A DNA stretch of 64,000 bases from Pseudomonadota bacterium (GTDB taxonomy: Bacteria; Bdellovibrionota_F; JAHFAK01; JBDREC01). Location of the stretch: contig JBDREC010000065.1 in the NCBI GenBank assembly GCA_043820105.1, positions 1 through 64,000 on the forward strand, given 5' to 3'. Position numbers and translations under genes: made by a program. Below, in pieces: positions 2,360-50,433 of this stretch. Under the pieces are notes generated by a model that saw only the letters and a list, made by a program, of their open reading frames with translations, had not been told where the DNA came from and ran no database searches. Numbering within the stretch: the stretch's first letter is position 1; every line of letters begins with the position of its first letter.

Positions 2360-3548
2360 TGAAATGAACTCCCAAAAGTATAAGCATAATATTTTAAAAA
2401 TATTTAGCATACAAATTCTAATGCGCATGCATTTTATCGCTGCAGTATTAATTCCATTCTTTACTGATTGGGGTAAAATAAATTTTACAAAAATATTATT
2501 TATTCAAGCATGGTTTATGATTTGGGTTTTCTTGCTTGAAATTCCAACTGGTACTATTGCTGATTTTTTTGGTCGTAAAGTTTCAATAATACTTGGTGCC
2601 CTTTTAGGATCGATAGGTTTTCTTGTTTATGCTTCCACTCCAAACTTTTATATTTTCCTGCTTGGTGAATTTATTTTGGCAGTATCTGTAGCCTTAATTT
2701 CAGGATCAATTGAAGCAATAGCTTATGATTCTCTTAAAAAGCTTGATCAGGAAGCTACATCCAAAAAGATTTTTGCTAATCTTGAAAGCTTTTCACTTGC
2801 TTCAATGGTTATTGGAGCCCTGCTTGGATCAGTATTTGCAAAGTTTTTTGGTTTAAGAGAAACCGTATTAATTCAGGCGATACCAGCTTTTTTAGCCTTT
2901 ATTGTTGCTTGCACATTGTTGGAACCTAAGACTCAAAAAGAAAATAAAGAAATATCCTATATTGAGACCCTTTTTAAAGGAGTGAAATATTTTTTAAAAC
3001 ACAAAGTTTTAATAATCCTTGCATCAGACTTTATTTCCGTTGGTGCACTAGCTTTCCTAATTATTTGGTTTTATCAAGCGATTTTAAAACTATCTGGCGT
3101 TGACATTGTTTATTTTGGCATAGTCCATTCTTTGTTGGTTATAAGTCAAATTATAATAATTAAATCTTTTAATATATTTGAAAAATTCCTTGGATCAAAA
3201 AGAGCATATTTGTTTTTTTCAAGCATCATAACTGGTGTTTTTTATATCATCCTTGGATTAATTTCATATTTACCAATAATTATTCTATCAATAATCCTGT
3301 GTACTGGCTTTGGTATGTCAAGACGCCCTCTTTTTATAAATTACATGAATAAGCATATTCCTTCTGAGCAAAGAGCCACTATTTTATCAACAGTATCAAT
3401 GTTCAGAACCTTGGCTATAGCTATCGTCTATCCACTCGCTGGATTCTTAGCAGACATTTCAATTCAAATGACCATGTTAATTATTGGAGCTACTTTAATA
3501 GTGCTTGCATTTGTATCCAAAGTAAAAGAGGAGCATTTGATTAATTAG
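2352..3548 (+). CDS. MFS transporter
   Basis: LEIPTGTIADFFGRK motif A and about 12 hydrophobic segments. True start may be an ATG a few codons downstream. Confidence 0.9.
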   Translation: MNDEMNSQKYKHNILKIFSIQILMRMHFIAAVLIPFFTDWGKINFTKILFIQAWFMIWVFLLEIPTGTIADFFGRKVSIILGALLGSIGFLVYASTPNFYIFLLGEFILAVSVALISGSIEAIAYDSLKKLDQEATSKKIFANLESFSLASMVIGALLGSVFAKFFGLRETVLIQAIPAFLAFIVACTLLEPKTQKENKEISYIETLFKGVKYFLKHKVLIILASDFISVGALAFLIIWFYQAILKLSGVDIVYFGIVHSLLVISQIIIIKSFNIFEKFLGSKRAYLFFSSIITGVFYIILGLISYLPIIILSIILCTGFGMSRRPLFINYMNKHIPSEQRATILSTVSMFRTLAIAIVYPLAGFLADISIQMTMLIIGATLIVLAFVSKVKEEHLIN

Positions 3549-48485: not shown

Positions 48486-48867
48486 GCGCTGACTGCTTCT
48501 CTACACCTTTATTTTATACCATTTCCTATGGTTTTCTACCTTTTCGCACCCCTTTTACACCCCTTGAATGGAAGAAACAGTATTGACGATTCTATGGATC
48601 GCGAAATATTTTTTTTATCCATTATTTTTTTTATAGGGATTAGAATCTCCATAATTCAGCCCTTGGAAATTAATTCCAAATTCAATCGCCATAACTGTTC
48701 CGAGCAGAAGCTTTGAACGCAAACCCTCGTTTTAGATAACTTGAGTATATATTATCCCAACTTCCAGAAACAAGAGATCATGTAATAATTTATCACGAAT
48801 TTCATAAAATTAATTAATCCTATTATGGTTCATCTCCATTTTGAGTACCTAAACAATAAACCGGGCT

Positions 48868-49013
48868 TATAAAAAACATTACAAAACCTCTTTTTCAAAA
48901 AGCTAATGCCCACACTCCTTATTCAAGCAATAAAAATATTTTATTGCTTTCATGCAGTCGTGCTCCTGCATTTTTATGCTTTTTTAAAAAGAGGTTTTGT
49001 AATGTTTTTTATA
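48868..49013. repeat. MITE/REP-like palindromic element
   Basis: 36-bp terminal inverted repeats with one mismatch (48868-48903 / 48978-49013) and two internal hairpins. Confidence 0.8.
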
Positions 49014-49145
49014 CCAATTTATTAAGAGCAGTTCTTAATTTAGTCCACATTGTATCAAGTATTGTTATATCTTATTATTTAGAAACAGTGCTAGCTAAAA
49101 GTTTTAACGGATCTCTTTTATAAAATGCATTAAAAGCAAGGAGAA

Positions 49146-49664
49146 TTTAAACTACCTAAAGAGGTTAAGATTTGCTGCCAAATATATGTCAAAGAAGTAG
49201 AAAGTTTAAATAAGCAGATATCACAAATAGAGAAAAATTATTTAAAAATAATAATGACAAAAAAACTTAGAACGAAATATGAATTAATAAAAACAATACC
49301 AGGCATAGGGCAATTAATAGCTGCAACATTATTATTAGAAATAGAAGATTTTAATCGGTTTAGTAATGCAAAAAAATTATCAGCGTTTCTGGGATTAACA
49401 CCGAGAGAATACTCTTCAGGAGAGCATATTCATAAAGATAGAATAACAAAGCAAGGTAATAGCTGGTTAAGGTGTTTATTAATTGAAGCTGCGTGGATAT
49501 TAATAAAAAAAGATAAAAAAATGGAAAAAGTATTTAATAGGATAAGTCATCAGACAGGAAGTAAAAAGAAAGCAATAGTAGCGGTAGCTAGAAGAATGGT
49601 ATGTATATTATTATCAATGATGAAAAACAATGAAAGTTATGAGTTAAACTTTAATAATAGATAA
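49146..49664 (+). pseudogene. IS110 transposase C-terminal fragment (no DEDD/RuvC domain)
   Basis: TIPGIG, F.NAKKL.AFLGLTP..YSSG, ITKQGN..LR..LIEAA and AIVAVARR motifs. Confidence 0.9.
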
Positions 49665-49699
49665 ATGAAATTAAATTAATTATTAGAAGATATTACAAT

Positions 49700-49845
49700 G
49701 ACAAGAAATTACGACCTCGACAGCCGATCTGTGCTGAAAACACGATAAGGAGAATGAGGCGTAATATAGCATTAAACGAATATGCAAACTGAGACATTGT
49801 TACGATAATGATCTCGAATGGGAGAATGTGAATATGTCTAATAAT
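49700..49845 (+). ncRNA. Putative bridge RNA / seekRNA
   Basis: Two stem-flanked loops carry paired guides that match the insertion target and the element's right end (see findings). Confidence 0.7.
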
Positions 49846-50120
49846 TTAATAGAAAGGATAGTATATATGTAATTTTAACTTGACGATACACATGGGAGAT
49901 CGGTGCTTAGTATTTTATAAAAGAGATCTGTTTAAACTTTTAGCGTAGGTACGCAATTCGGAGATGAGCCAAAATTATTATTAGAAGATGAAAGAATTGA
50001 TATTAACTTAAAAAATAATAAAAATATGACAGCTGCAATGTTAGCCAAGAATTATATGAGCTATATAGTTTTTAATTTTTTAAATAAAGACCCAAGAATA
50101 CAAAATTAAAAGCAACCCCT

Positions 50121-50274: not shown

Positions 50275-50349
50275 CGTCCCCACGGGGATTCGAACCCCGG
50301 TCGCCGCCGTGAAAGGGCGGTGTCCTAGGCCGGGCTAGACGATAGGGAC
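50275..50349 (-). tRNA. tRNA-Glu (TTC)
   Basis: Cloverleaf GTCCCTATCGTCTAG...CTTTCAC...GTTCGAATCC; CCA not encoded. Confidence 0.95.
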
Positions 50350-50360
50350 AAGTTTCATGA

Positions 50361-50433
50361 TGAGCCAGGAGGGAGTCGAACCCGCGACCCACGCCTTAAA
50401 AGGGCGTTGCTCTACCAACTGAGCTACTGGCCC
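50361..50433 (-). tRNA. tRNA-Lys (TTT)
   Basis: GGGCCAGTAGCTCAGTTGGTAGAGC...CTTTTAA...GTTCGACT cloverleaf; one T-stem mismatch. Confidence 0.93.

Follow-up and report, generated by a model that had tools for sequence, protein, structure and literature searches.

Within the 64,000-nucleotide stretch of DNA analysed here (the window), positions 49144-49898 of the plus strand hold a 755-nt remnant of an IS110-family insertion sequence that has been truncated at its 5′ side. The remnant retains the C-terminal half of the transposase gene, the gene for a guide RNA, and the complete right end, and it is without the left end and approximately half of the transposase gene. Its boundary is ambiguous by up to 5 nt, with GGAGA common to 49140-49144 and 49895-49899, and the length of 755 nt applies when one AG is counted with the flank. 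What is left is the right half of a dead element of the IS110/IS1111 type, with its guide RNA still present, and this copy is unable to move by itself. Two tRNA genes are located on the minus strand (50275-50349 and 50361-50433), approximately 380 nt to the right of the insertion.

The 3′ part of the transposase gene (49144-49664, plus strand) ends in a stop codon at 49662-49664. Its reading frame happens to be open from 49134, within the flank, and the first ATG is at 49254 (136 amino acids). The C-terminal Transposase_20 domain is present (PF02371, E 2.7e-29), and the NCBIfam profile NF033542, ‘IS110 family RNA-guided transposase’, matches over positions 177-342 of 343 with 145.4 bits against a cut-off of 140. 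A Pfam search of the remnant found no PF01548 (DEDD/RuvC) domain. Among 811 candidates in a search for longer proteins, 223 matched at E <= 0.001; the best of them is 52% identical, approximately 350 amino acids long, and carries both PF01548 and PF02371. As PF01548 is missing here and present in full-length relatives, the gene is a truncated member of the IS110 family and not a non-member. The element is considered 5′-truncated because only the C-terminal domain is present and the fragment aligns to the second half of its relatives, from about column 191 of 388 in their alignment. The remnant also contains GLTPREYSSG, which includes the Ser-Gly motif and is invariant across this alignment.

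Relatives of the element were collected from metagenomes (80 loci kept of 520 confirmed) and from genomes (80 loci kept of 542, the best being a metagenome-assembled genome, or MAG, of Oligoflexia at 49%). They share at most about 52% protein identity with the remnant, and all of the family rules described below are thus derived from distant kin. A search of 41 genomes for close relatives found nothing closer than 31% identity, and the matches on plasmids were annotated solely with the generic name ‘IS110 family transposase’, so that no element name was obtained. The closest intact relative, L044, is 1497 bp long from core to core, and blastn of the window gene remnant against its DNA gave no match. 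The genome from which the window comes is 3.8 Mb in size with 32% G + C, and its assembly is 93% complete. A DNA search of this genome (19 matches) showed that the body of the element is single-copy and both flanks are repeated. DNA searches, Pfam searches, and an nhmmer scan for the RNA identified no intact copy in the assembly. Elsewhere in the same genome there is a complete but distant IS110-family gene of 345 amino acids (C46:81565-82602, equivalent to L020:1489-2526; PF01548 E 3e-7, PF02371 E 1e-8), which is located at the end of a contig, with the hairpin module of the host repeat described below present about 700 nt upstream, and a further partial DEDD match is found at C76:90530-90703.

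The flanks of the remnant belong to a dispersed repeat of the host. On the left, positions 49094-49141 comprise the left arm of a hairpin and the left half of its apical loop, ending in AAGG, and are followed by the core AG of the left junction (49142-49143). On the right, ATCGG and then the right arm of the hairpin occupy 49899-49944. Both flanks are repeated in the genome, and another copy of the repeat, on contig C103, represents the empty site: here the two flanks abut with a five-base overlap to give ...AAAAGCAAGGAGATCGGTGCTTAG..., with one AG only. The target that had been inferred in the original prediction, AAGGAGATCGG, is therefore found uninterrupted in the same genome. The uninterrupted site on C103 folds into a hairpin of approximately 40 bp with a ten-base apical loop, AGGAGATCGG (-32.8 kcal/mol, z -10.4). 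The 11-mer target occurs five times in the genome compared with about 0.6 expected, and four of the five occurrences are within copies of the repeat. The sequence CACATGGGAGA on contig C29 lies inside an apparent coding sequence and was taken as chance. The insertion site is thus the apical loop of a hairpin within a modular, dispersed repeat that is a few hundred base pairs long.

This host repeat spans 48860-49143 and 49899-49970 in the window, and further copies are present on contigs C1, C28, C56, C57, C61, C76, C90, C101, C103, C104, C106, C108, C109, and C111. Many of the copies are at contig ends, so that the assembly is broken by the repeat. A long hairpin at 48864-49015 forms the first module of the repeat, and here two miRNA-like rows from Rfam were far below the gathering score and were rejected as reflecting merely a long hairpin.

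The 234 nt between the stop codon (49664) and the end of the element (49898) contain the guide RNA. Homologous RNAs were collected by an iterative nhmmer search of the regions downstream of the stop codons at 158 loci, with loci dropped if they had fewer than 120 nt downstream, and this converged on 90 rows including the window. Because the nhmmer search had been seeded from the window, a window-free covariance model, R1, was built from 35 relatives. In the 64 kb, R1 has one match, at 49701-49832 on the plus strand, covering all 145 model positions with 78.5 bits (E 1e-18), which identifies a homologue of bridge RNAs and seekRNAs. The model also matches 71 of the 80 metagenome loci and 24 of the 80 genome loci, giving 95 of the 160 fetched loci in total, of which 35 had trained it, and the match is always on the transposase strand. 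At all of these loci, and in L044, the RNA is downstream of the gene. The original prediction of an IS110-family element whose RNA follows the transposase gene, the arrangement of the IS1111 group, is thereby supported. Rfam 15 gave no match in 49665-49900 at E up to 1. Folding of 49700-49845 (146 nt) gave z -3.9, and a 236-nt fold gave z -2.0. One metagenome relative has two equal-scoring copies of the RNA, 312 nt apart, downstream of a single transposase gene (L052:3044-3189 and 3356-3501).

Comparative analysis of 36 sequences by RNAalifold identified two helices, in which 18 of 20 pairs changed on both sides. When an inner hairpin was added, to give 24 pairs, 95.1% of cells were paired and 20 of the 24 pairs were compensatory. 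None of 500 shuffles scored as high and slid controls reached 28-51%, with the qualification that the relatives are kin, so that the shuffle figures, and the permutation figures given below, overstate independence. The target-binding module (49708-49765, plus strand) consists of the helix P1 and the inner hairpin P2. In P1, positions 49708-49713 (ATTACG) and 49715-49718 (CCTC) pair with 49756-49765 (GAGG.CGTAAT); 96.6% of cells are paired, 8 of the 10 pairs show double-sided changes, and the stem proposed for loop 1 is thus a conserved one. P2 is the GTG/CAC stem, pairing 49730-49733 with 49741-49744 (95.1% paired). The other helix is a conserved hairpin, P4 (49791-49815), formed by GAGACATT (49791-49798) with AATG-A-TCTC (49807-49815), and all 10 of its pairs are changed on both sides.

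Every string on which the original prediction drew was found in place, including, in the second half of the RNA, AGACAT (49792-49797), TAATGATCT (49806-49814), and ATGTCT (49834-49839), with GATCT and GGAGAAT present in both halves. Folding and covariance across the homologous 3′ regions supported loop 1 and did not support the architecture proposed for loop 2. P4 uses up both AGACAT and TAATGATCT, and AGACAT/ATGTCT is therefore not a conserved closing stem and goes no further than chance; it was chosen by the 146-nt fold alone, with the 236-nt fold picking P4. TAATGATCT, read previously as the left-end guide, is really the 3′ arm of P4. It follows that the left end deduced from it, (AGA)TCATTA, is not supported, and this sequence is absent from the 30 left junctions that could be placed and from the left-end remnant on contig C111 described below; the occurrence of GATCT in both loops becomes a coincidence. 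The shared GGAGAATG is present as described, and reflects a motif, AG-n-TTG, that follows the core and is conserved across the family alignment in both loops. Pairing of CGAAT with ATTG, considered by eye as another stem that might close the donor module, is not retained in the window and was dropped.

The family alignment has variable stretches exactly at both strands of loop 1, and a semi-conserved stretch at ATGGGAGA. The 5′ strand of the target loop (49720-49730, plus strand) contains CCGATCT (49724-49730), the reverse complement of the core and right flank, AGATCGG (49897-49903). The 3′ strand (49745-49754, plus strand) contains AAGG-AG (49747-49752), which is the left flank and core, and one or two further bases follow; AAGGAGA at 49747-49753 is identical to 49138-49144. 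In the window the guides are 7 nt + 7 nt, and they overlap in AAGGAGATCGG. To assess such guides, each was compared with DNA of its own locus and, as a permuted control, with DNA from other loci. Of the eight bases that follow the core, six or more matched the reverse complement of the 5′ strand in 20 of 38 loci, compared with 1.07% of 1402 permuted pairs; several of the misses look by eye like one-base shifts. For the first nine bases of the 3′ strand, an exact match of at least 7 nt was found upstream of the gene in 30 of 61 full-length loci, compared with 8.8% of 3650 permuted pairs. Roughly half of the relatives were below the thresholds in these two tests. The two strands proposed as target guides thus occupy variable positions, and these positions track the flanks in relatives.

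The left-flank match directly precedes a left end of the type AG-TTGCTATG in 30 of 30 loci. In relatives, the one or two bases that follow the core in the 3′ target strand agree with the start of the left end: the base after the core is the same as the left end +1 in 27 of 30 loci (T/T in 18, A/A in 9), and the same as the right flank +1 in 2 of 20. In this respect, the base resembles the handshake guides of IS621, as presented in part of the published account (PMC11208158).

The donor module has its 3′ strand at 49816-49828 (plus strand), where ATGGGAG-A (49818-49825) corresponds to the right end and core. This is the string ATGGGAGA, identical to 49892-49899, for which a role as the right-end guide had been proposed, and the position does track the right end in relatives. 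The 7-mer aligned to ATGGGAG recurs no more than 260 nt downstream in 52 of 73 loci, compared with 40 of 3864 permuted pairs (1.0%), for which a different 7-mer was required. There are 12 variants of this guide (among them ATAGCAG, ATGACTG, ATGGTTG, ATAACAG, ATAGGAG, and ATAGCGG), each matched in at least one locus, and in the loci inspected the match sits at ...CAT-nnn-AG directly before the flank. The 5′ strand of the donor module (49777-49790, plus strand) has the reverse complement AGTTTGCATATTCG and is a candidate guide for the lost left end. Matches of at least 6 nt between this strand and the left end were found in 11 of 30 loci, compared with 9.2% of 846 permuted pairs, a weak covariation. 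The strand probably reads the core and the first bases of the left end.

The right end of the remnant contains TTGACG, a -35-like box (49880-49885, plus strand), which lies 13 nt from the end of the core; in 51 of 58 relatives a TTGxx box falls within the 10 nt surrounding this position, and the consensus places it at a constant distance. It is followed by the right subterminal repeat and terminus, ATACACATGGG, and then the core AG (49897-49898), together spanning 49886-49898 with the consensus N8-CATAGC-AG. Across the 58 relatives the right-end consensus is cTTGAC-N8-CATAGC-AG, and the window fits TTGAC-N8-CATnnn-AG exactly. The left ends of relatives have the form AG-TTGC-TATG.T, and all 30 placed left junctions begin with AG, TG, or GG; T- or A-rich bases come next, and after them a motif resembling CTATG. 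Subterminal inverted repeats in the IS1111 group measure 7-17 bp. Left repeats in relatives, resembling GCTATG(C)TGAGTT, pair with their own right ends; the window itself is without a left end.

A further copy of the host repeat, at about C111:17880-17921 on the minus strand, carries the left flank seen in the window, and AG-ATGCTATGCTGTAT... continues from it for approximately 40 nt; an unrelated gene on the opposite strand then follows, and the right half of the hairpin is missing. Thirteen bases of this remnant are identical to the left end of a relative (L084), it pairs with the reverse complement of the right end in the window in the pattern C(T/C)ATG(C)TGTAT, and together with the relatives it gives a left-end start of AG-(T/A)TGCTATG. 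From this likeness we interpret it as what remains of the left end of another element of this kind, and it points to a second insertion that has decayed separately. The candidate left-end guide of the window (reverse complement AGTTTGC...) differs from the C111 remnant (AGATGC...) by one mismatch and a one-base shift.

The best explanation, held with high confidence, is that an IS110-family element of approximately 1.5 kb, with the layout of the IS1111 type, inserted into the apical loop of the hairpin repeat at the target AAGG-AG-ATCGG, and that its left end and the first half of its gene were lost later, leaving the remnant described above. The intact element would have consisted of a short left end, the transposase gene, the guide RNA, and a long right end. 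Its RNA can be described as two modules of one design: a 5′ guide, a hairpin of (U)GUG with CACG, a 3′ guide, the core, and nUUG. Module 1 would read the target, its 5′ strand pairing with the top strand of the core and right flank, and its 3′ strand pairing with the bottom strand of the left flank and core, with the 1-2 extra bases matching the left end. Module 2 would read the donor, with a 3′ strand that matches the right end and core, and a 5′ strand that probably reads the core and first left-end bases. The intact element would circularize by joining its right end to its left end, and a complex of recombinase and RNA would exchange strands at the AG core. We infer this chemistry and the transcription of the RNA, as well as the timing and manner of the later loss.

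Circularization would also unite the -35 box of the right end with the -10-like TATG.T of the left end, and in the relatives the TTGAC and TATG.T boxes would then be 17 nt apart. Promoters at such junctions are known for these families, as part of the literature reports (PMC11187229), and this clade may have a junction promoter as well, which would drive expression of the transposase gene and the RNA.

This class of RNA, termed bridge RNA or seekRNA, has been known since 2024, and the locus is a clear example of it and not a new system. The comparisons made here draw on parts of the published accounts. In the seekRNAs of the IS1111 group (PMC11187229), the complement of the top strand is at the 5′ side and the complement of the bottom strand at the 3′ side, overlapping in the target, and the guides described here have the same order and overlap. 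As in ISEc11, ISPa11, ISKpn4, and ISPst6, the RNA is positioned downstream of the transposase gene; the targets are repeated palindromes in both cases, and the 3-nt right extension and the transposase motif GL-P----SG are also shared, as are, in the relatives, subterminal inverted repeats (PMC11187229). Differences are that the left extension is shorter in the clade described here, that this copy is truncated, and that a separate donor-reading module, seen here by covariation, is not described for seekRNAs in those parts of the account (PMC11187229). Unlike the four named elements, the proteins here form an uncharacterised clade from metagenomes and MAGs only. Insertion in one orientation into repeated extragenic palindromes is shared with ISPpu9 and ISPa11, according to portions of two accounts (PMC12288879, PMC11187229), whereas the host repeat here is a hairpin of approximately 40 bp in a modular dispersed repeat and not a classical REP.

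Likenesses also extend to the bridge RNA of IS621, as far as they are set out in parts of two studies (PMC11208160, PMC11208158). Its two modules likewise read target and donor, with a separate guide for each DNA strand and a dinucleotide core at which the guides meet; it also has handshake guides, extra bases that pair with partner DNA after the exchange, and a promoter rebuilt at the junction of right and left ends. A fold family is shared, since the profile of the relatives matches the protein chains of IS621 (8wt6, E 2e-21) and ISCro4 (9t56, E 9e-24). IS621 differs in having its RNA in the left end, upstream of the gene, with the strand order reversed, a CT core in place of AG, and subterminal repeats of only 2-3 bp. 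The bridge RNAs that Durrant et al. (2024) predicted for the IS1111 group likewise lie in a long right end, and the target, donor, and core are each complementary to their loops, according to the relevant part of their report (PMC11208160).

Our assignment to the IS1111 group is based on architecture, and not on a tree with named insertion sequences, and a different filing can be considered in which the element belongs to a branch of the IS110 group with a downstream non-coding region. The mechanism would be the same in outline. Part of the literature does report IS110-type branches with a 3′ non-coding region, and the terminal extensions here, approximately 3-5 nt on the left and 3 on the right, differ from a published 7/3 (PMC11187229). 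This filing is nevertheless improbable: the guides are in the IS1111 order with the top-strand complement first, the relatives have subterminal repeats of about 12 nt and proteins of 350 amino acids, the GL-P----SG motif is present, and a long right end is combined with a short left end. A further suggestion is that the remnant can still move as a non-autonomous element, or that its RNA still works in trans with a transposase encoded elsewhere. The undamaged appearance of the RNA and right end would fit this, and an intact copy could be unassembled, given the incompleteness of the assembly and the many contigs that end in the host repeat. It is a very doubtful proposition when set against the missing left end and left subterminal repeat, a left junction that runs into the middle of a gene, the single occurrence in the genome of both the element body and the RNA, and the distant type of the sole other complete IS110-family gene, on C46. 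Least credible, to the point of being negligible, is that there is no RNA gene and that the guides are chance matches in an A + T-rich intergenic region. The lack of a match in Rfam 15 and the modest z of the 236-nt fold would be expected from this, but the direct observations of homology, structure, and guide covariation with flanks and ends oppose it, including the E-value of the window-free model, the compensatory pairs, the guides that track flanks in relatives, and an empty site that agrees with the prediction.

Within the preferred reading of a later truncation, the manner of the loss can be considered from the left junction. This is exact at the core, and AAGGAG-AAT (AAGGAGAAT, 49138-49146) is identical to nine consecutive bases of the 3′ strand of loop 1 (49747-49755), handshake-like positions included, although a match of the two extra junction bases would arise by chance about 1 time in 10 in this A + T-rich DNA. 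An internal site resembling the left flank and core may have served as a false left junction for the element's own RNA-guided recombinase, and the outcome would be either a nested deletion that stayed in place or the re-insertion of a mini-circle. We regard such an origin, as opposed to random deletion, as unlikely; the junction is compatible both with slippage between the GGAGA repeats and with deletion by the recombinase at a false site. If it were true, the locus would be a natural record of an off-pathway deletion by a bridge recombinase.

Bridge recombinases are under development as programmable tools for DNA insertion, and no new principle is added to them here. What is added is a large, uncharacterised clade whose RNA follows the gene and whose guide code is readable from the sequence. 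The core is AG, or TG or GG in some members; both strands of the target loop carry guides, a further guide reads the right end, one base is handshake-like, and the two modules share a design. The original prediction had spoken of a programmable recombinase specificity read directly from the DNA; the specificity is indeed readable, and the recombinase is absent from this copy, which has lost the catalytic DEDD half and the left end. For the host genome, the remnant marks an old insertion into a hairpin repeat whose apical loop is the target of the element.

A small palindrome, CTATCCT-A-AGGATAG, is present at the left junction of L044 (about L044:320-352), and hairpin targets may be common in the clade. 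In other copies of the host repeat, a different, hairpin-forming insert of 99 nt occupies the identical target position (C104:142-240 and about C28:44591-44689), and has a 10-bp direct repeat of the target (AAGGAGATCG) on either side. Comparison of the 99-nt insert with the ends of the insertion sequence showed no clear likeness, and it may be a second small mobile element that uses the same loop. A rearranged version of this insert is found on C76, partly at about C76:79235-79330 on the minus strand.
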